Source of the DNA: Vulcanimicrobiota bacterium
GTDB taxonomy: Bacteria > Vulcanimicrobiota > Vulcanimicrobiia > Eremiobacterales > Eremiobacteraceae
Assembly (NCBI GenBank): GCA_963812135.1
Contig: CAWETU010000001.1
Span: forward strand, 2,048,001 to 2,112,000
Reading direction: 5' to 3'
Length of the DNA: 64,000 nt
Under the pieces are notes generated by a model. The model made no database searches, was not told the DNA's origin, and was given only the letters and a program-made list of their open reading frames with translations. The position numbers and the translations under genes are program-made. Below are positions 9,025 through 20,106 of this stretch, piece by piece. Numbering within the stretch: the first letter of the stretch is position 1; every line of letters starts with the position of its first letter.

Positions 9025-10331
9025 ATTTGGCTTAGGAGGCGGCGGGCGTCGTCCGCGTACAGGGGATGGAACTGCGGATTAAGCTCGAGCGCGCGCGAGA
9101 GGCGGCGCTTTGCTTCCGCGCTGTCGCCGTTGCGCAGCGCGATGACGCCCGCATGGTACTGCAGGCGGGCATCTTGCGTGTCTAACGCGATGGCCCGGCG
9201 GGCATGAAGCTGTGCTTCGCGCCATTGCCCGGCCTGCGCAAGCGCCCAGGCTAGCGTGTCCTCGGCGAAGACGTCGTCGCGTACGATCACATCGCGGCGC
9301 GCGATCGCGATCGCGTCGGCGGTGCGGATGCCGTGCTCAGAATAGTAGACGGCGAGCGCCCGATCGTTGACGCGCTGCGCGTTGCCGATGCGCTCGATCG
9401 CGAGAATCGTGTCCTGCGTGACCTTTGCGCCTTGCAGATCGCCGAGCGCCCGCTGGGCATCGGCCTTGTAGCCGAGCGTCTCGGGCAACGGCAGGATGTC
9501 GGCAGCACGCGTGGCTGCGTCGAGCGCCTCGCGCCAGCGCTTTTGCCCGAGGTACATGCGCGCGAGCGCGTTGTACGCGCGCGGATACGCAGGGAAGATG
9601 GCCAACGCTTCGTTGAAACGCCGCTCTGCGGTGGAGACATCGCCGACCGCCCAAGCGAGCTCGCCGTCGCGGAAGTGGTACCAGGCGCGCGCCTCTGCAG
9701 GCGAGTCGATGATCGAGTCGACCGAGGCCATGGAGCGTTGGGTCAGACGGCGCGCCTCTGAGATATCGCCGCTCAATTCATCGTAGCGGGCCTGGGCGGT
9801 GTAGAGCGCGACATCGACCTCAGGGCCAGGGTGGGCCGAGCGAAGCAATCGCTCCGCGTCGTCGTAGCGCCCGAGTTCCGTGTCGATGCTCGCAACCTGT
9901 GCGATGGCGCCCGAGTTCCACGGCTCGATGGCGTGCGCGTCGAGCGCATAGGTCAGCGCGCTCTTGAAGCGATGCAGCGAGAGCAGCGCCGACGCGAGCG
10001 TCATGTCCGCGGTGACGTTGTTGCGCGGTTGATACACGAGCGAGCGGCGCGCGACGTTTTCCGCGCGTAGCAGATCGCCGATGTCGCCTGTTTCGCGAAA
10101 GCGCATGAGATATTGCGTTGCGAGCATGCGCGTGATCAGCTGGTCAGGATTCTTCTTGACGTCGCGTTCGAACACCGCGACGATCGCGTCGCGATGCAGA
10201 TAGTCGGCCATCACCGGCGCGGGTGACGGCGCTGCCGCCATCGCGCGGTTCTGGCTGAGGATGAACGCCGGCCACGCAGCGATGGCCACGAAGGCCACCG
10301 CTGCAAGGACGACGAGTGTTCGGACGTTCAC
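9021..10331 (-). CDS. Tetratricopeptide repeat protein (exported/membrane-anchored)
   Basis: Repeated A..Y/F..AL...P TPR motifs, DTLAWAL, YHAGVI; GTG start overlaps upstream stop by 1 nt. Confidence 0.8.
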   Translation of the reverse strand: MNVRTLVVLAAVAFVAIAAWPAFILSQNRAMAAAPSPAPVMADYLHRDAIVAVFERDVKKNPDQLITRMLATQYLMRFRETGDIGDLLRAENVARRSLVYQPRNNVTADMTLASALLSLHRFKSALTYALDAHAIEPWNSGAIAQVASIDTELGRYDDAERLLRSAHPGPEVDVALYTAQARYDELSGDISEARRLTQRSMASVDSIIDSPAEARAWYHFRDGELAWAVGDVSTAERRFNEALAIFPAYPRAYNALARMYLGQKRWREALDAATRAADILPLPETLGYKADAQRALGDLQGAKVTQDTILAIERIGNAQRVNDRALAVYYSEHGIRTADAIAIARRDVIVRDDVFAEDTLAWALAQAGQWREAQLHARRAIALDTQDARLQYHAGVIALRNGDSAEAKRRLSRALELNPQFHPLYADDARRLLSQM

Positions 10332-12409
10332 TAGTTCGGGATGCCCACGTACGGGAACGAACCGAGATAGTGATGCCCATCGGGTCCAACGTTGTCGGTC
10401 GTCAAGCACTTGGATTCTTTCCCGTCGTCGGGGGTCAGCTTGAGCGCCGGCAACGTGCCGCCGAAGATCGCGCCGAGCGAGATGTCGATGACATCGTCAT
10501 TCAGTCCGCGGCCCCCGAACGTGCTGCCTGTCGCGCCACCGGTCTCGGTGCCGAGATAAGCGGCTTTGACGCCCATCTTCGAAAGGTCCACGAGGATCTC
10601 GTCGGGGATGAGCACGGCTTTGAGTGTGTTGGCAATCGCGTCCGACCGGCCGGCGACGGTCTTCGTGAAGCTCACGATGTCGTCAGGCAGATACGGATCG
10701 CTCGTCGGAGTGCTGCGGTTGGTCTTGTCGTGGCGTTCGAATGACTCGAACGCCTCTTTGACCGCGGGCCGGCCCAGGCGCTCGATCTGCGTGTAGGTGC
10801 CGCCGTACGGTGAGGCGGAGTTGCTGATCGATGTCGAAGCCCACACGTTGATCTTGCCGGGCGTGCCGCCGGCCGAAGCCAGCGCCGTGCGCGGCAACTC
10901 GATCACGAGCGACAGCACATTGAACTTGTTGGCTGACAAGAAGTCCTGCGATGGCGTCGTGTCGCAGCTGCTGCCCGCTGCAAATCCGCGGAAACCGGTA
11001 GCCGTCGCCGCCGGCACTGTCTTCCCATTGAGGTGGTAGCCGAAGTTGCGGTCTGGGATGATCGCGAAGAAGCGCGCGAGGTCGAAGAAGAACGGATCCT
11101 CACGCGGGCCTGCGAAGACGGTGACGCCGCCTTTGAGCTTCGAGACCGTGTTGTACTTGAACGTGCCCGATGAGCCGATCCACGTGTTCTCTGTGCCGAC
11201 CTGATTCGGTTTGCCCGGGCCGTGGAGCGTGATCATCTGCGAACCGTCCTTCGGCTCGCTCGCCGAGAACTGGATCACCAGATCCTCGACATGGTCGCCG
11301 GTGTTGTCGATGCGCAGCTGATACATCACGCCGGGGTCGAAGAACGTCGAGGGGCCTTGACCCGCAGGGATGAGCGGGTGCACGTCCATCGCGAGCACGA
11401 CGTTGTTCGTGTCGGCTGCGGGGAACACGTACACGTCGGTGATGTCCGCGCCGGGTCGCGCGAGCACTGCCGGCGAGTCGGCGTGGTCCGAGCTGACGCC
11501 CGGGCGTGCGCCGTAGAGCGAGAACGCCGTGCCGAGTCCGGCAAGCACGGCGACGGCGGCGACGATGCCGATGGCTTTCCGATTCATCTTGAAACCTCCA
11601 GTAGAGCCGGCGCCTTCGGGATCTCGGGCCGACCAGGTGAACGTCCATGCGAAGACGAGTAGGAGCGCGCCGACGAGGACCGCGCTCACCGCGAGGTCCG
11701 GCACCGGCGATTCCCATCCCAGCGCCTGCGCCATTTCGTAGCTTGCTACGAACAGCGCGAGCGCCGTGACGGCAATGATCCACACGCGGGTCGCGCGCAC
11801 GAGTTCGAGCGGCTGGCGCGTGCACAGTTTGTAGACCAGCAGGCTGTCGAGCGTGTCGGTGACGGCCATGCCGAACGAGAATAGCGCGCCGATCAGCAGG
11901 CCAAGCAGGATGCCGCCGCCCGCGGTCAGCGCGAGCGCGTACGTCGCGACTTGACTCGACGTGTCAAAACCAAGGCCGAAGAGGAGTCCGATCGGGATCG
12001 CGGCCAGCGGACTGGTGGCGGCGCGCAACGATTTGGGGAGCAGCGCGTTCTTCAGACCGGCGATCGGGCCGGTGCGGTGCAGGATCAGCTGGCGGATGTT
12101 CAAGCCGGCGATCGCGAGCAGCGTCACGATGCTCACCCACGTGCCGATCGTCTCGAGCAGCGCGCCATGGAGCGCGAGCCGGCTGCCGAACAGGCCCGCG
12201 AGCGCCGCGATCGAGAGCACCATCACGGAGTGGCCGCCGGCGAACAGGGTTCCCACGAATCTGCTGAGCCGTTCTTTGGCGCCGAGGCTGTTGCGCGTCA
12301 GGTTATCGATGGCGGCGAGATGGTCGGGATCGGCGCCGTGGCGCAGGCCCAGCACGAAAACCGTGAACGCGATGACCCCGATCGACAACGGCGCTGCGTG
12401 GGGGATCAT
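10331..12409 (-). CDS. NiCoT (HoxN/HupN/NixA) Ni/Co permease fused in frame to a DUF4331 protein
   Basis: RHGADPDHLAAID, GHS, LGFDTSSQ NiCoT motifs; then SSDHADSP, DITDVYVF, FAGPREDPFFFDL, QIERLGRP, DDVID, FPY (DUF4331). Internal GGAGG-N7-ATG at 11587. Confidence 0.8.
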   Translation of the reverse strand: MIPHAAPLSIGVIAFTVFVLGLRHGADPDHLAAIDNLTRNSLGAKERLSRFVGTLFAGGHSVMVLSIAALAGLFGSRLALHGALLETIGTWVSIVTLLAIAGLNIRQLILHRTGPIAGLKNALLPKSLRAATSPLAAIPIGLLFGLGFDTSSQVATYALALTAGGGILLGLLIGALFSFGMAVTDTLDSLLVYKLCTRQPLELVRATRVWIIAVTALALFVASYEMAQALGWESPVPDLAVSAVLVGALLLVFAWTFTWSARDPEGAGSTGGFKMNRKAIGIVAAVAVLAGLGTAFSLYGARPGVSSDHADSPAVLARPGADITDVYVFPAADTNNVVLAMDVHPLIPAGQGPSTFFDPGVMYQLRIDNTGDHVEDLVIQFSASEPKDGSQMITLHGPGKPNQVGTENTWIGSSGTFKYNTVSKLKGGVTVFAGPREDPFFFDLARFFAIIPDRNFGYHLNGKTVPAATATGFRGFAAGSSCDTTPSQDFLSANKFNVLSLVIELPRTALASAGGTPGKINVWASTSISNSASPYGGTYTQIERLGRPAVKEAFESFERHDKTNRSTPTSDPYLPDDIVSFTKTVAGRSDAIANTLKAVLIPDEILVDLSKMGVKAAYLGTETGGATGSTFGGRGLNDDVIDISLGAIFGGTLPALKLTPDDGKESKCLTTDNVGPDGHHYLGSFPYVGIPN

Positions 12410-13977
12410 GAGGCGTTTCCTTCGGTCGAATAAATTCGACCGCTACTGATGTCGTGGGTGTGGTCGTGCGAGTGAACATGGCCCGGCGAGAACGCAAACC
12501 CGGCGATCGCCGCGATCACCAGCGTGGTGACGATGATCGCGGGCGCGTGGAGCGTCGACGCGGCGGCGCCCTGGCCGAGCATCAACGCGCCGATCGCCGC
12601 GATCACCGTCGCCGAGACGAGCGGGCCGTATCGGACGAAGCGATCGAGGCTGGGCCGGCCGGACAACCACGACGCGCCATGAACGAGCGCGATGCCAAGG
12701 CCCGTGAGCACGCCCGCAAGGCCGACGCTGAACGCGATGATGACCAGCAGGCCGTACGCGAGCTGATGGAGCGTGAGCGCGGCGAGCAACACGACCAGCG
12801 CCGCCGGACAGGGCGCGATGTTGCCGCTCATCGCGACCAGCACGACGCTGCCGAACGAGAGCGGTGCGTTGCCGGCCGGCACGTGGTCGTGGCCGTGCGG
12901 GTGGTCGTGGTCGGTCGAATGGATTTGACCGCTACTTTCGCCGTGAGCGTGCGCGTGGGCGTGTGCGCCGCCGCGGCGTATCTTAATGAAGCGCGACAGC
13001 GCGTTTGCGCCAAGGACGGCCACCATCGCGCCCGACGCCAGCGTGATCCATGGGTAGACGTTCTCGGGAACGATCCATTGGGCGGCGGCGAGCATGAGCA
13101 GGCCGAGCGCGAGCACCCCGGCGGTGTGTGCGAACGTCAAGCCGACCGCCAAGATGAGCGCCTGCTTCGAGGTCGCGCGCGCGCCGACCAGCGACACCGC
13201 GAGCAGCGTCTTGCCGTGACCGGGTTCGAGGGCGTGCAGCGCACCGAGCCCGACGGCCATGATCATCGTGAGCAACACGAGCCATGGACTGGACGCGCCT
13301 TTCGCGAGCATGTCGGAGAGCGCGTTGGAACGGAATTGGGGAGCAGCCGGTGCCATTGTCGCCGGGCGCTCGCTGGTGGTCACGCTGGCCAACACTGAGC
13401 CGCTCGATGCGAGCGTGAGCTGCACGCCGCTCACCTCGCGCGGCGAGCCGAGCAGCGCGCTCGGGTAGGCGCGCAGTTCTTGCGTCGGCTCGCGTTGCGG
13501 ATAGACGACGACGTCTTTCCAACCGATGCGCCCCGGATATGCGAGATCGAGCACGGTGAGATGACGCTGGGCTGCCGCGGCCGAGCGCGGCAACGCCGCA
13601 TGGAACTCGTCGACCCAATACAGCGTCGGCAGTCCGCCGGCGCCAGGGCGAGTCGAGGCGTGCGGTTGACCGGCTTGGAGCTGGAGCGCGCTTCCGTCGA
13701 GCGTGACGGAGAGGCTTGGTTGGATGACCGCTACTTCATCGGACGCCCAGCGGTCGAGCAGCGCTTGCGGGTCGGGACCGTCGATACCGCGCGCGTGCAT
13801 GATCTGGAACGTGGGGATCTCGGCGATGTCGAGGACATATCGAATGGTGAGGTCGGTCGCGCCGACGCGGACTTTCGTGAGATGGTTGATCGTGAAATTG
13901 CCGAGCGGGTGCGCGTCCGCCGGCACTGCGGATGCCAGGACGAATAGAAACGCGACCAACGCCAGAACTCGACGCAC
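12406..13977 (-). CDS. RcnA-like His-rich Ni/Co transporter with an N-terminal extracytoplasmic domain
   Basis: Signal peptide, HPLGNFTINH, HALEPGHGK, His-rich loop, PCPAAL. Confidence 0.82.
   Translation of the reverse strand: MRRVLALVAFLFVLASAVPADAHPLGNFTINHLTKVRVGATDLTIRYVLDIAEIPTFQIMHARGIDGPDPQALLDRWASDEVAVIQPSLSVTLDGSALQLQAGQPHASTRPGAGGLPTLYWVDEFHAALPRSAAAAQRHLTVLDLAYPGRIGWKDVVVYPQREPTQELRAYPSALLGSPREVSGVQLTLASSGSVLASVTTSERPATMAPAAPQFRSNALSDMLAKGASSPWLVLLTMIMAVGLGALHALEPGHGKTLLAVSLVGARATSKQALILAVGLTFAHTAGVLALGLLMLAAAQWIVPENVYPWITLASGAMVAVLGANALSRFIKIRRGGAHAHAHAHGESSGQIHSTDHDHPHGHDHVPAGNAPLSFGSVVLVAMSGNIAPCPAALVVLLAALTLHQLAYGLLVIIAFSVGLAGVLTGLGIALVHGASWLSGRPSLDRFVRYGPLVSATVIAAIGALMLGQGAAASTLHAPAIIVTTLVIAAIAGFAFSPGHVHSHDHTHDISSGRIYSTEGNAS
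12423..12446 (-). repeat. REP-like palindrome, family A, inside coding sequence
   Basis: Consensus copy translated as (S)SGRIYST at the RcnA-like C-terminus. Confidence 0.8.
12912..12935 (-). repeat. Degenerate REP-like palindrome, family A, inside coding sequence
   Basis: CGGTCGAATGGATTTGACCG-CTAC translated as (S)SGQIHST within the His-rich loop. Confidence 0.7.
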
Positions 13978-14043: not shown

Positions 14044-15927
14044 TTACTTGAGCGTGTGAGGCTTGTCTATGTAGTCCTGATAGATCAGGCCTTGGGCGAT
14101 CTCCATCGATTCGGTGAGCAGGCCACGCGCGAGCGCCATGTCCTCACACGTCTCGCCCGTCGCCTGCGCCTGCGAGACGATCGCATCGACCGGCTGTTTG
14201 GTCTCGAACGACAGCCAGGCTGCGCAGCTGATCTCCCCGGGCGGGAGGCCGCTGCTCACGGCGGCTGCGTATTCGGGCGTGGCGACGCCGTTGAACCGGT
14301 ACGCCATGGCATGACGGAAGTCGTTATAGCGCTGGGGCGAAGAGGTCAGGTCGAGCATGGTGATGTGCGCCGAAAGCCACCGGCTTTGCGCGGTGTAGAC
14401 CTCGTCATCGGCCTGGAGCGCAAGCGCCTTGACCTGATCCCAGCTCGTCTGGGCCGCGTCTAAGGCGGCTTTGACTTTCGGCATATCGGCTTCTTTGATG
14501 TCGCCCGACGTCGTGTCGATCGTGTCGAGCACGAGGAAGTAATCCTTGAGCAGCTTGACGCTGTCGCCCGCCGCGCTGACCGATCCGCGCGCGTGGTCGA
14601 TGGCGCGCACCAGCTCGTCCGACGACGTCGTGAGCTGCGCGGCGATCGCGGGATAGTACCCGATCACCGGCTGTGCTGCCGGCGCGGTCGAGCTCAGCTG
14701 CGCAGCCATCTCGTGCAGCATCGAACGATTGTCCGCGAACAGGCCAGGAGCCGAGGACATCACGTCAGCGCTCAGGTCGAGCGAACCGTTGACATCGACG
14801 ACCATGCGGTCCAATGCGGCGATCGCGGTCGCGAGATTGTTGGTCGGCGTCTTGGGGTGGCCGAGGTTCGGCACGCCGCCGGAGAGGGAGTTGAGCTGCG
14901 TGTAGAGCGCCTCGGCGTCGCGATTGCCCCACTTCTCCTGCTCCGCCGCCGCAAGCGCGTCGTCGTGCGTGATGTTGAGCGCCTGTTGGATCAGCGAGGC
15001 GGTCGATGCCCGCCCAGCCGGATCGAGCGCAAACGCGAACTGCATCTGGCCCGCGGGCACGACATCTTTGAGCGCGACCTCAACGGCGGCAAGATGCTGG
15101 GCGGCCTGCGGCTCGTTGGGCTGGACGCGCAGCGCTTGCTGGAAGCGGACTTGCGCGTACGAAAAACGTCCCTCGGTCTCGTCGTGGATCGCGTCGGCGG
15201 TGATCTGCGTGGCGCTGGGATTGTCCAGCTGCGGATAGCCCATGAGGTGCGAGATGCGATCGCTTGGGACCGGATGATCCTGGAACGCCTTGTCGGCCTT
15301 GCTCTCGGGCATTGTTTCGGAGAGCTGGCGCAATTGGTCCATGAAGTCGACCATCGATTGCGGGTCGTAGCCCGCGCGCGACATCAGCTGCAACCCGTAT
15401 TGGTCCGCCTGCAACTCGTCTTGCCGAGAGAATTTGTTCATCGCGAGATCGCCGCCGTAGCCGCCGAGCAGCGACGTCAGCGGAGACAAGATCGAGAGGA
15501 TGCCGATCAGGATGCCGAGGATGTTGCCCTTCTCCTCCAACGTGACGACATGGCCGCGCTCGACGTGGCCCATCTCGTGCGCCATCACGCCGGCCAGCTC
15601 GTCATCCGACGAGACCGTGTTAAGCAGCCCCATGTCGACGTGGAGGAATCCGCCGGGCAGCGCGAACGCGTTGATCTCGTTCGAGTTGATGATCTTGAAC
15701 GAATACGTGATGTCTTGGCGCGCGCGGTACTTGGCGAGGTTGTCGCCGACGCCGTTCACCCAGGTCGTCAGGAATGGATCGTCGACGAGCAGGCTCTGCC
15801 GGTCGATCTGCTTGGAGATGTCGGCGCCTTTAGCGATCTCGGCTTGGGTGCTCATGGCGAGCACCGGCAATGGAGATGCGACGTTGCACAGGAACGCGGC
15901 GAGCACGATCGCGGAGACGAGGCGCAT
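14044..15927 (-). CDS. M48 (BepA/YfgC-like) zinc metalloprotease with a long helical C-terminal extension
   Basis: NAFALPGG, HEMGH, SRQDELQAD, HP...RI. Confidence 0.85.
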   Translation of the reverse strand: MRLVSAIVLAAFLCNVASPLPVLAMSTQAEIAKGADISKQIDRQSLLVDDPFLTTWVNGVGDNLAKYRARQDITYSFKIINSNEINAFALPGGFLHVDMGLLNTVSSDDELAGVMAHEMGHVERGHVVTLEEKGNILGILIGILSILSPLTSLLGGYGGDLAMNKFSRQDELQADQYGLQLMSRAGYDPQSMVDFMDQLRQLSETMPESKADKAFQDHPVPSDRISHLMGYPQLDNPSATQITADAIHDETEGRFSYAQVRFQQALRVQPNEPQAAQHLAAVEVALKDVVPAGQMQFAFALDPAGRASTASLIQQALNITHDDALAAAEQEKWGNRDAEALYTQLNSLSGGVPNLGHPKTPTNNLATAIAALDRMVVDVNGSLDLSADVMSSAPGLFADNRSMLHEMAAQLSSTAPAAQPVIGYYPAIAAQLTTSSDELVRAIDHARGSVSAAGDSVKLLKDYFLVLDTIDTTSGDIKEADMPKVKAALDAAQTSWDQVKALALQADDEVYTAQSRWLSAHITMLDLTSSPQRYNDFRHAMAYRFNGVATPEYAAAVSSGLPPGEISCAAWLSFETKQPVDAIVSQAQATGETCEDMALARGLLTESMEIAQGLIYQDYIDKPHTLK

Positions 15928-15929
15928 GC

Positions 15930-16445
15930 TTAGCCTTTGTAAATCGTCGCGATGTTATCCTTGAACGCGTCGGGCGTCATGAAGCCGCGGTAGACTTTGC
16001 GCACGATCCCGTCCTTGTCGATGAAAAAACTCGCCGGCAGCGAGCTGACTTCATACGTGTCCGCGAAGCTGCCTGGGTCGAGCGCCACCTGGTAGACGAT
16101 GCCGAATCTTTTCAGGAAGGGAAGCACGAGCTCGGCGTCCTCTTGCTCGTCGATCCCGAGGAAGACGACCTTTCCTTTATATTCAGGATAGCTCTTCACG
16201 AGGCCGGGCAGCTCTTGCTTGCACGGCGGGCACCACGTGGCGAACGCGTTGATGAAAACCGGCTGGCCGCGGAACTGGGCGAGCGTCACGGGTTTGCCGT
16301 CGACATCCTTGAGGGCGATCGGCGGGGCCGGCTCGCCGACGACCACGCCATGGGCAGGATGGTTCGTGCTGCCTTGCTTGGCGCTGCAGCCGGTCGCGAT
16401 GACGGCCAGGAGCGGTAGTAAAAGGAAGAAACGCGTTTTTGTCAT
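15930..16445 (-). CDS. TlpA/ResA family thiol-disulfide oxidoreductase (lipoprotein)
   Basis: Lipobox ATGC; FATWCPPCKQELP; LP.SFFIDKDG. Confidence 0.88.
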   Translation of the reverse strand: MTKTRFFLLLPLLAVIATGCSAKQGSTNHPAHGVVVGEPAPPIALKDVDGKPVTLAQFRGQPVFINAFATWCPPCKQELPGLVKSYPEYKGKVVFLGIDEQEDAELVLPFLKRFGIVYQVALDPGSFADTYEVSSLPASFFIDKDGIVRKVYRGFMTPDAFKDNIATIYKG

Positions 16446-16453
16446 GTCCTGTG

Positions 16454-18359
16454 CTATGCGCCTGCGGCGGTGAGGATGAGGTCGGTGCCCCACCCGAGCA
16501 TGAATCCTAAGAACACGCCGATCGTGGCGAATTCCTTATAGCCGATGCGGCCGCCGGCCTTCGTCATCTCCGTGATGACGTAGATGATGGCGCCCGCGGC
16601 CAGCGTGAGGAACAGCACCGACAGCGTCGGCGAGACGAAGTGGTAGCCGATGACCGTGCCGAGGAATGTGGGGCCGCCGCCGATGAGGCCCAAAATAACG
16701 ATCTCGCGCAGACCGATGCGGTGCTCCGCGCCCACGAGCGGCGCGGCGATGCCGAACCCTTCGGTCATGTTGTGCAATCCGAAACCGATGATGAGCAGCA
16801 CGGCGAGCTCGATCGCGCCGGTCGCGGCGGATTGGCCGATCGCCAGCCCTTCGCTGAAGTTGTGCAGGCCGATGCCGAGCGCGATGGTCGTCGCCAACGC
16901 CATCGGACTCAAGATGCCGCCTTCGGCCACCGCTTCACGCTGCTTTGCCAGCACGATCCGCGAGAAATACACGAGACCGATAAGACCGAGCCCGAATCCC
17001 GCGAGATAGACAAACGCGAGCCAGACGAATGGTCCGGCGCCGGCGCCTTGCTGCATTTTGCCGAGTGCTTCGACGATTGGTTCGCCGGCTTGGCGCAAGA
17101 TGTCGAACAAGAGGAAGAACAACACGCCGATCGCGACGGCGTTGAGAAACGCGATCCATCGTCTGGACACGCCGCGCATCGTCGCAAAGGGTAGGCCCAA
17201 GAAGATCGTCAGGCCGGCGATGGCGCCGAGGATCAGCGTCTCGGTTTGCGTCATCTTCGGGCCGCTCGCGCCGGAGCCGTTCTGGGGCGCTGCGGCCATC
17301 TGGTCTTCCATGGCCATCGAAGCGAATCGATCGGGCGCGCCTTCGTATTGGACCGCGGAGACCAGTCCCCCGGGACCGCGGTCGCCGTTCATCATGTGGT
17401 CGGCGACATGGCAATGGAACATCCACGTGCCCGGCTGCGCGTCGGCGATGAATTCGATGTCGCGCGTCTCACCCGGACCAAGCGTGACCGTGTCCATCAT
17501 CTGGCGCGCGTTAGCGGCGACCGGTTGACCGTCGAATGCGACGATCTGGAAATGGTGGCCATGCAGGTGCATCGTGTGGAATTCGGTGCCGCTGATGTCG
17601 ATCTCGCGCACGCGGATGCGCTGGCCGCGCTTGACCGTCGAAGGGCTTGCCGAGCGGATAGCTCTTGCCGTTGATGCTGAAGTAATTCTCGGTCGAGCTG
17701 AAGACTTTCCACGACGAGATCAGCATGAGATAGTCGCGGTCAGGCTTGGGACCGGTTGCTGGAGTACGCGGCTCGACGACTACGGCGCCATACAGGCCGC
17801 GGTCGAGTTGATTCAGATCGTCGACGTGCGTGTGATAGATGTACGTGCCGGGCTGCTGCACGACGAACTGATAGATGAAGCTTTGCCCTGGCGGCACCGG
17901 CGCTTGGCTGAATCCCGGCGAGCCGTCCATCGCAGCGGGTACATTCATGCCGTGCCAGTGGATGGTCGTCGGCGCCGGCAGATGGTTGGTGAGGATGACG
18001 CGTAGCGTGTCGCCTTGGCGAACGTGGATGGTCGGACCCGGCACGGTGCCGTTGAACGTCCACGCTTCGACGGTGACGTTTGGCGCCGGCGTCCACGGCT
18101 TGACTTCGGCGATGAGATGAATCGTTTTTGTCGAGCCGGTGGTCAGCGGCGGGAGCAACGGCAGCAGCGAGTAGTCGCGCTGCGCGTCGGCCTCGGCTTG
18201 CGCGACGATCGACTGCGAAACGTCGGCGGCGAGCGGGCCCGCCGGGGCGCTGCTGAACGCATCGTCCGCTCTCGCCTGTTGCGTCGCGGGCGTCAGGCAT
18301 GCGGCACTGAAGGCGATGGCGATGCCGGCGAGCGCGAACCGCCGCGCGAAGTCGTGCAT
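16454..18359 (-). CDS. Two-domain multicopper oxidase fused to a ZIP-family metal transporter (+1 frameshift near 17639)
   Basis: HWHG and YHTH (domain 1); HTMHLHGH and HCHVADH (domain 2), continuous in one ORF with ZIP motifs LHNFSEG and LHNMTEG; removing one base restores GKPFTVKRGQRIRVR. Confidence 0.82.
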
Positions 18360-18366
18360 GGGTCCG

Positions 18367-19113
18367 CTATTTGCCTTTCGCCGGTTTTTGGTGCGGATGT
18401 TTGACGGTGATCGCGCCGGCGAGCTGCGTGCTCACCGAGTGCGTCTTGCCGTTGACTTTGAGGGTGAGCAGGCCGACGGCGCGCTCGAACTTTTCGACCA
18501 TGACGGTGGTGCCTGGGCGCAGGCCGAGTTGCGCGAGGTACTTCAAGAGCTCGGGCATGTCGTGCTTGACTTCGAGCACCTTGGCGCTCACGCCGAGCGG
18601 CAGCTCGACCAGACCGATCGCGTCCTCGTGGTCCCAGAGCGAGCCGTCTTCACGCGGGATCGCGTGGCCGTGCGGGCACGTCGTCGGCTCGCCCGTAAAA
18701 CGGTAGAGATGTTGTTCGACCAGCGGCGAGATCGCGTGCTCGAGTCTGCACGCCTCTGCGTAGGCGAACTCCCATGGGATTTGGAGATGATCGACCAGCA
18801 ATCGTTCGGCGAGCCGCTGACGTCGCAGCGTGAGCGCGCCGATGCGCGCGCCGGACGACGTGGGCATCACGCCGTGGCGTCCTTCGTGTTTGACGTAGCC
18901 GTCGGCATCGAGTTTCTTAAGCATCGCCGACGCGGATGCGGCTGAGACGGAGAGCTCGGCGGCGATCGCCGACGTGGAGACGGGGTCGCTATCGCGTTGC
19001 AAGCGCACGATCGTCTTCAGATACATCTCGACGTTCGGGCTGACCTCAGGCTCTGAGGTCGGCTCGACGAGCGGAGTGCGCAAGGCGGAGTTGACGCTGC
19101 GTTGTGTGGCCAT
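18367..19113 (-). CDS. DtxR/IdeR-family metal-dependent repressor with FeoA domain
   Basis: EMYLK, HTH, RLAERLL, EACRLEH, CPHGHAIP, LGLRPG; start uncertain. Confidence 0.9.
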   Translation of the reverse strand: MATQRSVNSALRTPLVEPTSEPEVSPNVEMYLKTIVRLQRDSDPVSTSAIAAELSVSAASASAMLKKLDADGYVKHEGRHGVMPTSSGARIGALTLRRQRLAERLLVDHLQIPWEFAYAEACRLEHAISPLVEQHLYRFTGEPTTCPHGHAIPREDGSLWDHEDAIGLVELPLGVSAKVLEVKHDMPELLKYLAQLGLRPGTTVMVEKFERAVGLLTLKVNGKTHSVSTQLAGAITVKHPHQKPAKGK

Positions 19114-19114
19114 G

Positions 19115-19128
19115 TTAGCCTTGCCTAA
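19115..19128. promoter_or_regulatory. Putative DtxR-type operator
   Basis: TTAGGCAAGGCTAA (minus strand), an imperfect TTAG..CTAA palindrome just upstream of the regulator ORF. Confidence 0.6.
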
Positions 19129-19273
19129 TTCGGGGCCTCAGGCTTGGTTATCCTGTGCCATGAGGCGGGACTTAATGGCCTTAGGGGTTGTACCGGCGCT
19201 TCGAGGGGTAAATCGGAGATAGCGAAACATTGTATGCTCTTACGTACGTTCAGTGTTAGGGGTATCAAACTCA

Positions 19274-19738
19274 ATGAAAACAACGAAATTTATCGCAGCC
19301 GGCCTGATCGCCGCCTTCATGCTTGCCATGGCTCCGAAGCCTATGGCGTTAGCAGACGGCGCGGCCAGCACCCGTAACATCCTGTTGGGCGGCGCAGCTG
19401 CGGCCGCGGCAGCGATCATCATCATCAACCACAACAAGCAAGTCCACGCGAAATACGCCGCGGACGCGCAGCAGCAAGCCGCGCTCGCCGAACAGGCCAA
19501 CAACGCGCAGGCGGCCGCGAAGCAGTACAAGCTCGCGTATACACATGAAGTGGCCGTCGCCGACTCGCTGAAGCAGGAAGTGGCGCTCCAGCAAACCCAG
19601 ATCAACAAGCTGAACGCGGCGGTCGCTGCGATCAGCCCTCCTGGCTCGAACTTCGTCGCTTCGAAACCGGTCGCGGTGGTTCCAGCATCAGGCGCTAACG
19701 CGCCTCAGGTGGTCTCGTACGGCTGGGGTACGTTTTGA
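19274..19738 (+). CDS. Secreted/membrane hypothetical protein with coiled coil
   Basis: Signal peptide, Ala/Ile hydrophobic stretch, Gln/Ala heptads. Confidence 0.65.
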   Translation: MKTTKFIAAGLIAAFMLAMAPKPMALADGAASTRNILLGGAAAAAAAIIIINHNKQVHAKYAADAQQQAALAEQANNAQAAAKQYKLAYTHEVAVADSLKQEVALQQTQINKLNAAVAAISPPGSNFVASKPVAVVPASGANAPQVVSYGWGTF

Positions 19739-20106
19739 TCGCCCGTAGACTGATCATCGCATGCGTGCTGGCTGTGGGCCTGGTGGCCTGCAGCCAGTCG
19801 CACGCCAATGACCCGACAGCGGTGGCGACGTCGGCCGCGCAGGCCCTGTACAACAACGACTACAGCGGCGCCACGGCGAATTTCGACGATGCGCTGAAGG
19901 GCCAAGCGACGCGCACGCAAGTCGCGGTGATCTCCGACAAGATGCACACGCTTGGCGATTTCCAAGGCCTGACGCTGACCAAGAGCGACGAAGACACGCG
20001 CCGCTATTGGTTCGACGCCAAGTTCAGCAAAGGCACGATGACCGTCGAGATGAAGCTGCACGCGAACGGGCAGATCGCGGCCTATCGGATCGTCCCCGCC
20101 TCATAA
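19735..20106 (+). CDS. Lipoprotein, DUF3887-like
   Basis: Lipobox LVAC; A...FD..LK, LG.F, F.KG...GQIA pattern. Confidence 0.6.
   Translation: MIARRLIIACVLAVGLVACSQSHANDPTAVATSAAQALYNNDYSGATANFDDALKGQATRTQVAVISDKMHTLGDFQGLTLTKSDEDTRRYWFDAKFSKGTMTVEMKLHANGQIAAYRIVPAS

Follow-up and report, generated by a model that had tools for sequence, protein, structure and literature searches.

To our knowledge, metal uptake by a coupled oxidase and permease is known only with permeases of the FTR1 type, as in the Fet3-Ftr1 ferroxidase-permease of yeast, and we know of no ZIP transporter that works with a redox partner; ZIPs have a central place in the zinc, iron and manganese nutrition of organisms from bacteria to humans. 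For ammonia-oxidising archaea, a pair of genes encoding a multicopper oxidase (MCO), MCO1, and a ZIP is on record, for which work by Kerou from 2016 is reportedly the source cited. In one study of these archaea, two-domain MCO1 genes adjoin that of a zinc/iron permease, both genes are moderately induced under copper limitation, and it is proposed, by analogy with Fet3p, that MCO1 oxidises Cu+ to Cu2+, which the ZIP then takes up, a scheme that the paper itself calls unvalidated (Reyes, 2020; PMC7785015). The combination "MCO1 + ZIP" is also tabulated across archaeal genomes in a second paper (Daebeler, 2018; PMC5817080). Here we analyse a window of 64,000 nucleotides from a Vulcanimicrobiota bacterium (GenBank assembly GCA_963812135.1, contig CAWETU010000001.1, positions 2,048,001 to 2,112,000 of the forward strand), the minus strand of which carries a gene that joins such partners in one chain, an MCO fused to a ZIP transporter (MCO-ZIP). 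A literature search for a fusion of this kind found no paper, most subscription journals lying outside its coverage; the view of the initial annotation that the module is not a described one needs to be limited to the fusion itself, the adjacent archaeal pair being described.

The gene and its parts are placed as follows, where P0001 is an intact homologue of 634 aa, T1 denotes the type 1 copper site and pLDDT the predicted local distance difference test of a structure model:

16454..18359, minus strand: MCO-ZIP fusion gene, broken in the assembly by one extra base
18261..18359, minus strand: signal peptide, about residues 1-33, ending in ARA with DD following (sequence; N-terminal helix in the model)
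17766..18101, minus strand: cupredoxin domain 1, with HWH and HTH and no T1 Cys (Pfam Cu-oxidase_3, residues 87-198)
17639..17639, minus strand: the extra base, which shifts the frame (DNA reading; contigs; homologues colinear across the site)
17384..17653, minus strand: cupredoxin domain 2, with the T1 site (Pfam Cu-oxidase_2; HTMHLH at 17561-17578, HCH at 17408-17416)
17243..17332, minus strand: Met-rich flexible linker, residues 343-372 of P0001 (model pLDDT; Met content)
16457..17242, minus strand: ZIP domain of eight helices (HNFSEG at 16847-16864, HNMTEG at 16757-16774)

Open reading frame (ORF) A, at 18359..17511 on the minus strand (282 aa), opens with a hydrophobic N-terminal signal sequence (MHDFARRFALAGIAIAFSAACL, running on to ARA and then DD) and continues into Cu-oxidase_3 (Pfam 7e-36), without any Cys. 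A second minus-strand frame is open over 17719..16454 (421 aa from stop to stop) and leads from Cu-oxidase_2 (Pfam 2.7e-20; HTMHLH, HCHVADH) by way of SMAMEDQM to a membrane domain with HNFSEG and HNMTEG. The second cupredoxin domain and the ZIP domain thus lie in one uninterrupted frame, as the initial annotation had stated, and every motif that it listed (HWH, HTH, HxxHxH, HCHxxxH, SMAMEDQM, HNFSEG and HNMTEG) is present. Cu-oxidase_3 and Cu-oxidase_2 are the only oxidase domains that Pfam recognises in the window's fusion, which amounts to two cupredoxin domains. The window is 96% identical to P0001 over the C-terminal 394 residues, and the homologues go in the databases only by the names "multicopper oxidase domain-containing protein" or "zinc transporter ZupT". 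An AlphaFold2 model of P0001, built on an alignment of 88 fusion sequences to which all conservation counts below refer (in P0001 numbering), has a pLDDT of 87.8 and a predicted template modelling score (pTM) of 0.69; it starts with an N-terminal helix (residues 2-23) and two domains folded as beta-sandwiches, the linker that follows drops below a pLDDT of 50 at 355-365, and residues 371-633 form eight long helices.

A search of 5.8 billion clustered proteins returned more than 100 proteins of 580-645 aa that carry PF07732, PF00394, PF07731 and PF02535. Those full-length fusions that are named are labelled Candidatus Eremiobacteraeota, Eremiobacteraceae or Vulcanimicrobiaceae. At the level of genomes, matches at E<=1e-30 were obtained in 175 of 301 sampled from the phylum (Eremiobacterota by record names), or in 167 of 293 when eight unpublished matching genomes (G128, G232, G245, G177, G247, G275, G263 and G237) are excluded. 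All 21 genomes of the window's own family match, as do 139 of 207 in a second family, f2, and none in several others; thirteen large genomes of the phylum give a partial match only, and five large-genome members hold the oxidase part only. Outside G000 and contig ends, the listed genome matches are colinear and contain no stops; the fusion is not confined to this assembly. Given the number of full-length proteins with the same four Pfam families and the share of genomes with a match, the fusion is not a product of chance, and the locus encodes a real, conserved, single-chain MCO-ZIP protein. Among 1.84 billion representatives at 50% identity, only two colinear fusion clusters (P0007 and P0240) were found, and a search of the ESM Atlas gave nothing beyond the family's own cluster. 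From species-representative genomes 79 loci were kept, about 27 being fusions and the rest stand-alone ZIPs (48-55% identical) from Chloroflexota, Actinomycetota, Ktedonobacteria and others; a few of the fusion loci stand under odd metagenome-assembled genome (MAG) labels, such as Binatus, Acidiferrales or "proteobacterium".

The two parts also occur in the opposite order. In P0241 (667 aa) and P0243 (620 aa), both from the search of the 1.84 billion representatives, the Pfam Zip match precedes the two oxidase domains; P0409/P0410 align colinearly with 96% of the length of P0241 at 39% identity, and the closest relatives of these reverse-order proteins are the MCO-ZIP fusions. Since both ends of a ZIP lie outside the cell, a feature of the family with which the alignment to BbZIP is consistent, either domain order leaves the oxidase outside. 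Judged from the sequences, the two orders would represent at least two fusion or permutation events, and their joint occurrence speaks for functional coupling and against accident. Between its ZIP and oxidase, P0241 contains a further domain of about 100 residues, and P0243 has QCH in place of HCH at the T1 motif. The same oxidase subfamily is fused to other partners in P0320, P0305, P0276, P0255 and P0358, these partners being DUF4396 (a membrane domain), outer-membrane efflux (OEP), beta-propeller and S-layer homology repeats, and it appears that the subfamily is often tethered to envelope components.

The frameshift, which the initial annotation had put at about 17639, can be placed exactly from the DNA and the homologues. 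The surplus base is a single minus-strand G at 17639 (TTC-G-ACG-GTC). As assembled, ..GKPF and TVKRGQRIRVRE fall in different frames; with the G removed the window reads GKPF-TVKRGQRIRVRE, a junction that agrees with the homologues (..GKPF[LVE]VK..), and P0001 across the same site reads ..INGKSYPLGKPFLVKRGQRIRVRE.. The check suggested for this position was run on assembled contigs, those from four public runs in Logan being compared with window positions 17000-18300. All three contigs spanning the site lack one base at 17639 or 17638: it is absent from record 2 of X1 (334 nt, two other differences from the window) and record 14 of X3 (641 nt, 53 differences), and record 7 of X2 (320 nt, 20 differences) has its gap aligned to 17638. 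As X1 possibly represents the very sample from which the window came, it does not count as fully independent proof of an error. The same-genus genomes G071, G134 and G227 were matched from residue 11-15 to 634 without stops, and every same-genus genome searched matches, with a frame that is unbroken unless cut by a contig end. In L010 (5155-10369), a related long-contig MAG, the regulator, the oxidase and the M48 gene are each found in two or three frame-shifted pieces, a splitting that is typical of consensus indel errors in such assemblies. A census of frameshifts from overlapping same-strand ORFs gave 471 "cases" in which operon overlaps were not separable from errors, and it was dropped.

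We consider it quite probable that the extra base arose as an error of assembly or is a private mutation of very recent date, and the MCO-ZIP family is intact whichever of these origins the base has. The insertion is present in the assembly as given, and X1, with its two other differences in 334 nt, may come from another strain; one could thus argue that the base is real and the window's copy a dead, recent pseudogene of a family that is still functional. This seems unlikely in view of the three spanning contigs without the base, the uninterrupted same-genus genomes, the resemblance of the L010 breaks to consensus errors, and the two halves themselves, which are 90-96% identical to P0001 and keep every catalytic residue.

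The oxidase part has the ligand pattern that the initial annotation ascribed to it, presumably that of "type B" two-domain oxidases, by which we mean those with the T1 site in domain 2 only. The eight His of the trinuclear site are conserved in all 88 sequences (H134, H136, H178, H264, H266, H315 and H317) or in 87 of them (H176), and so are the T1 ligands H261, C316 and H321 (88/88), domain 1 having HTH instead; E259 (87/88) and D320 (88/88) flank the two T1 His, one of which is followed by M323 (82/88). The solved proteins that come nearest are the two-domain oxidases 2ZWN (phmmer 4e-50, Foldseek TM 0.78), 3G5W (phmmer 8.5e-48), 3GDC and 7RAB, the nearest of them being of the other type; Foldseek TM values to 2ZWN, 3G5W and 3GDC range over 0.77-0.81. 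With the whole P0001 model as the query, only oxidases are found among the top 50 Foldseek matches, and Fet3p also appears as a structural match (1ZPU, Foldseek E 1.4e-19). Stand-alone oxidase relatives of 335-346 aa, some of them from Chloroflexota, are 40-47% identical and share the ligand pattern. The axial Met of P0135 (His, four residues, Met) aligns with Leu332 of the fusions, after a six-residue insertion, and Leu332 is invariant among the 88; on the strength of this alignment only, MCO-ZIP fusions would have Leu at the T1 axial position. Fet3p reportedly has Leu there. The same residue is given for the T1 axial position of MCO1 from N. viennensis in the archaeal study (Reyes, 2020; PMC7785015).

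Oxidases with this ligand pattern are usually trimers, as the initial annotation noted, and a trimer is predicted by multimer modelling. Three copies of residues 38-352 were modelled in three runs, with three controls and our own alignment, and the oxidase trimer reached an ipSAE of 0.96 in all three runs, the best control reaching 0.00; contacts agree to at least 95% between runs and the pLDDT of the partner is at least 93 (94 in each run). The mark set by the tool, reached by 20 of 30 proteins solved as one-chain pairs and by 1 of 23 single chains, is a rough guide here, and the pass may reflect recall of similar solved trimers. In the predicted assembly, H134/H136 of one copy touch H266/H264 of the next, contacts that would correspond to the inter-subunit copper cluster of known two-domain oxidases, as a likeness rather than as binding.

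On the window's membrane domain, Pfam Zip scores E 1.6e-7 and 31.3 bits, below its cut-off of 35.1, and NCBIfam ZupT scores 6e-13 and 48.7 bits vs an equivalog cut-off of 252. Alignment to BbZIP chains by phmmer (2-4e-6) extends over transmembrane helices TM1-8, HNFSEG and HNMTEG align with the BbZIP TM4 and TM5 motifs, and homologues of the window's fusion carry precomputed PF02535. This evidence, taken together, leads us to accept the membrane domain as a probable member of the ZIP superfamily. Its residues N500, E503, H529, N530 and E533 are conserved in 88/88 and H499 in 87/88. The linker before it is 24-39 residues long, and its Met-rich character, previously noted from SMAMEDQM, recurs in the linkers of the homologues; a second clade has M..SH motifs. 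Less was left of the twin-arginine (Tat) signal that had been considered possible. The window does read RRF, but RR occurs within the first 20 residues of only 25 of the 88 homologues, and the closest, P0001, has QR, so that Tat export was rejected as a feature of the family; export by Sec appears more likely.

Upstream of the fusion gene lie a regulator and an operator-like element:

18367..19113, minus strand: DtxR/IdeR-family repressor with helix-turn-helix, metal-binding/dimerisation and FeoA/SH3-like domains (Pfam)
19114..19131, minus strand: operator-like palindrome, GAATTAGGCAAGGCTAAC, which abuts the ATG of the regulator

The regulator (Pfam Fe_dep_repress 4.8e-18, Fe_dep_repr_C 3e-24, FeoA 5.6e-12) is in the same orientation as the fusion gene and ends 7 nt from it, so that the DtxR-family repressor reported at this locus is indeed directly upstream; the same co-oriented arrangement is seen at 19 of 26 fusion loci with upstream sequence. 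Its best solved relatives are IdeR (1fx7, 5e-24) and SloR (5cvi, 3e-23). Equivalents of IdeR M10, C102, E105 and H106, the primary metal site, are kept, and these ligands are also conserved in the regulators of L008, L011 and L027. In 18/18 related loci, the 160 nt before the regulator contain a single relaxed form of the palindrome, often accompanied by another half-site about 20 nt farther upstream. Ten f2 genomes have no adjacent regulator, and their neighbouring genes vary and give no clue to the metal; the palindrome lies just before the fusion gene in five of these ten loci (L096, L097, L098, L101 and L103), with near-misses in four more and absence in L095. Chance cannot explain this recurrence, because the whole 2.79 Mb genome of the window has only five relaxed matches, the strict pattern giving two.

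Met and Cys ligands in such regulators reportedly favour Fe2+, and Asp and Glu favour Mn2+, a rule said to go back to Guedon and Helmann in 2003, and by it the fusion-linked regulator would be of the iron type. A second DtxR paralogue, outside the window at G000:C1:2215588-2217520 (L106 1276-3208), is 34% identical to it and has Asp, His, His, Glu, Glu and His at the same ligand positions; its stop codon overlaps with the beginning of an NRAMP gene (Pfam 4.8e-54), a classical MntR-MntH arrangement with an MntR-like regulator. Manganese as the metal sensed at the fusion locus was considered and is made less likely by this separate pair. Of the Fe/Mn transport module that the initial annotation had envisaged, the iron half has therefore gained from the Met/Cys regulator and the manganese half has lost, and iron seems the most likely cargo. 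Stand-alone ZIP orthologues of Actinomycetota (Gaiellaceae and others) have a DtxR-family regulator divergent and directly upstream (L044, L047, L048, L053, L054, L058, L062, L064, L065, L072, L077 and L078). These regulators mostly have carboxylates at the Met/Cys positions, and the ZIPs concerned look like a likely Mn-regulated ZIP subfamily. A ZIP of Streptococcus sanguinis is reported to import manganese (PMC8844249).

We propose, with our confidence about evenly divided, that MCO-ZIP is a starvation-induced, oxidase-coupled iron importer, the more general oxidase-coupled reading being included in this estimate. The signal peptide would export a two-domain oxidase with its T1 copper in domain 2, and the trinuclear site is predicted to form between the subunits of an oxidase trimer. 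A flexible, Met-rich tether of about 30 residues would join the oxidase to the 8-helix ZIP, whose N-terminus presumably faces outwards, placing the oxidase over the mouth of the transporter. The fusion gene would be co-transcribed with the DtxR/IdeR-type repressor, which, when loaded with metal, most likely binds the promoter palindrome, so that the module would be made under metal starvation. At the ZIP entrance, the oxidase most likely oxidises a reduced metal ion and thereby feeds or gates import. The logic would be that of yeast Fet3-Ftr1, with a ZIP as the permease.

A number of points weigh against this proposal as far as iron is concerned. The assignment of iron leans on the reported rule for Met and Cys, the genome also has one Fur-family gene, and the regulator has Q and Y at the positions of IdeR H79 and H98, so that two of the three ancillary-site ligands are missing. 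A 19-nt iron-box consensus fits at only 10-14 of 19 positions in the 18 loci, and the conserved box is not a classical iron box; it is a shorter palindrome with similar arms. The four palindrome matches that the genome has outside the operon lie within genes or near non-metal genes (an unknown 358-aa protein, a HicA-like gene and a hydrolase). The regulator thus appears to control its own operon only, which would be an unusually small regulon for a master regulator of iron. Seven loci of a clade 52-57% identical have no adjacent regulator at all, and this clade adjoins genes for an extracytoplasmic function (ECF) sigma factor, a zf-HC2 anti-sigma factor and a MucB/RseB-like protein. On the side of the transporter, ZIPs carry divalent ions, and Fe3+ made in front of a ZIP is not obviously useful; the P0001 model supports no contact between oxidase and ZIP, and none can be claimed because the linker is modelled at low confidence. 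Finally, the Met-rich linker and M323 beside a T1 His look like features for handling Cu(I) and not like those of an iron protein. In L020-L024 and L032, the fusion gene is divergent from the ECF sigma, zf-HC2 anti-sigma and MucB/RseB-like genes.

The Met features raise the alternative of copper acquisition, in which the tether would capture Cu(I), the oxidase would make Cu(II) and the ZIP would import it. Met accounts for 9.7% of linker residues vs 3.1% of the whole protein, MxM or MxxM is present in 69 of the 88 linkers, M323 stands beside the T1 His and E259 and D320 flank the T1 pair in the proportions given above. The hypothesis put forward for archaeal MCO1 and ZIP, with both genes moderately up in copper limitation, is of the same kind and is itself unvalidated (Reyes, 2020; PMC7785015). 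The regulator linked to the fusion belongs to the DtxR family, and the annotated loci showed no copper chaperone next to the fusion, nor any CopZ/CsoR/CueR-type gene or P-type ATPase. We know of no DtxR-family member that senses copper, and we regard copper acquisition as improbable. DtxR-type regulation and the Cu(I)-like Met features would be reconciled if the oxidase acted as a guard or filter, the ZIP importing Fe2+, Mn2+ or Zn2+ and the oxidase removing Cu+ or excess Fe2+ at the entrance. The stand-alone ZIP relatives of Actinomycetota and Chloroflexota, 48-55% identical, have no oxidase nearby, which would make the oxidase an add-on. We nevertheless hold this to be quite improbable, as covalent fusion in both domain orders suggests a tighter coupling than general protection, a service that free periplasmic oxidases provide in other bacteria.

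The oxidase could, lastly, be a laccase that destroys ligands, oxidising phenolic or humic chelators or siderophores and so freeing metal beside the ZIP. In favour of this, 2ZWN and 3G5W, the nearest relatives of solved structure, are catalogued as two-domain laccases or oxidases, and the stretch is found mostly in soil metagenome runs, one with 0.62 of its words and the others with small shares; shares below 0.2 were not used for claims about habitat, for which small shares give weak grounds. Nothing specific points to an organic substrate, and the T1 site is surrounded by conserved carboxylates and Met, which are more typical of metallo-oxidases, so that we think a laccase of this kind very improbable. 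Oxidase-coupled import, most likely of iron, remains our preferred interpretation of the fusion.

Two further genes follow the fusion gene on the same strand:

15930..16445, minus strand: TlpA-like thioredoxin-fold lipoprotein (Pfam AhpC-TSA 2.8e-22, Redoxin 3.7e-21)
14044..15927, minus strand: M48-family peptidase-like protein, 627 aa (Pfam Peptidase_M48 5.2e-29)

Both were considered as core parts of the module and rejected, as they adjoin the fusion only in L007-L010, the four loci most closely related to the window's. In other loci the M48 gene lies 2-5 kb from the fusion with an acetyl-CoA synthetase gene between, and it is probably linked by synteny only. Further downstream (window 10331-13977, minus strand) are genes for a 523-aa protein with a weak NicO match and a 692-aa protein with NicO (3.9e-21) and DUF4331 (1.8e-54), and the NicO genes may form a larger metal-handling cluster with the fusion. 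Divergent from the regulator, at window positions 19253-20106 on the plus strand, are two small secreted or lipoprotein-like genes, one of 161 aa without a family and one of 123 aa with a weak DUF3887 match; a similar pair is present at L011 4113-4960.

A natural fusion that is widespread in a soil phylum and occurs in both orders points strongly, as a "Rosetta stone", to joint action of a copper oxidase and a ZIP, and a single fusion gene makes the decade-old hypothesis on archaeal MCO1 and ZIP testable. We suggest, tentatively and as a rather doubtful extension, that ZIPs can serve as the permease half of oxidase-permease uptake, with a trimeric oxidase tethered covalently over three ZIP protomers and passing freshly oxidised Fe3+ or Cu2+ directly into the ZIP entrance. 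If this is true, it would define a second class of oxidase-permease transporters, independent of FTR1 and fused in both orders, and it would explain why MCO1 and ZIP genes are paired in ammonia-oxidising archaea, an association noted long ago. ZIPs are described as dimers, and an oxidase that must trimerise for its copper cluster poses a structural puzzle when attached to them. The hosts are uncultured bacteria of acidic, nutrient-poor soils, for which the fusion may be one of the main ways to obtain iron or copper. ZIPs would also become candidate partners for ferroxidases without a known permease, such as Drosophila Mco4, a fly ferroxidase that acts in iron import and whose permease partner is unknown according to the paper on it (PMC12218971).

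The fusion can be set against several known systems. Two-domain oxidases (mgLAC 2ZWN, Nitrosomonas europaea 3G5W and Arthrobacter 3GDC, and small laccases of the SLAC type) share with it the fold and the eight trinuclear His and, by prediction for the fusion, the trimer with an inter-subunit copper cluster. In domains 1 and 2 respectively, 2ZWN and 3G5W have HCH and HDH but the fusion has HTH and HCH, and for this reason its T1 copper would sit in the other domain; the six-residue insertion in the T1 loop, Leu for the axial Met and the attached membrane transporter are further differences. ZupT and BbZIP resemble the ZIP part in their eight helices, in HNxxEG of TM4 and in an alignment that extends over TM1-8. 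BbZIP has QDVPEG in TM5 where the fusion has HNMTEG, and only in the fusion is the outer N-terminus extended by an oxidase of about 340 residues. The regulator has the three-domain architecture of DtxR/IdeR and Met, Cys, Glu and His at the primary site; it differs in having Q and Y for the ancillary His, CPHGH as in SloR, a palindrome shorter than the classical box and, apparently, control of its own operon only.

Fet3p/Ftr1p likewise physically couples an extracytoplasmic multicopper oxidase to a permease and is starvation-induced, as the fusion presumably is. Fet3p, however, has three domains and a helix anchor of its own, the yeast system consists of two separate proteins, and its permease is of the FTR1 type with REXXE instead of a ZIP, so that the fusion is not a member of that family. 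Ferroxidases of the Fet3 type have an acidic Fe2+ site beside T1, for which E259 and D320 of the fusion would be candidates. Closest in concept is the archaeal MCO1 and ZIP pair, in which a two-domain oxidase is genetically coupled to a ZIP permease, an oxidase-then-permease model of uptake has been proposed, and MCO1 has Leu at the T1 axial position, with which the aligned Leu of the fusion family agrees. The archaeal genes are separate and adjacent, while here one polypeptide is encoded, rarely in reverse order; and the archaeal context is one of copper limitation, in contrast to the DtxR/IdeR-type regulator found here, the two being compared by description. MCO-ZIP is thus an oxidase combined with a permease in which a ZIP takes the place of FTR1, fused to its oxidase rather than adjacent to it as in the archaea.

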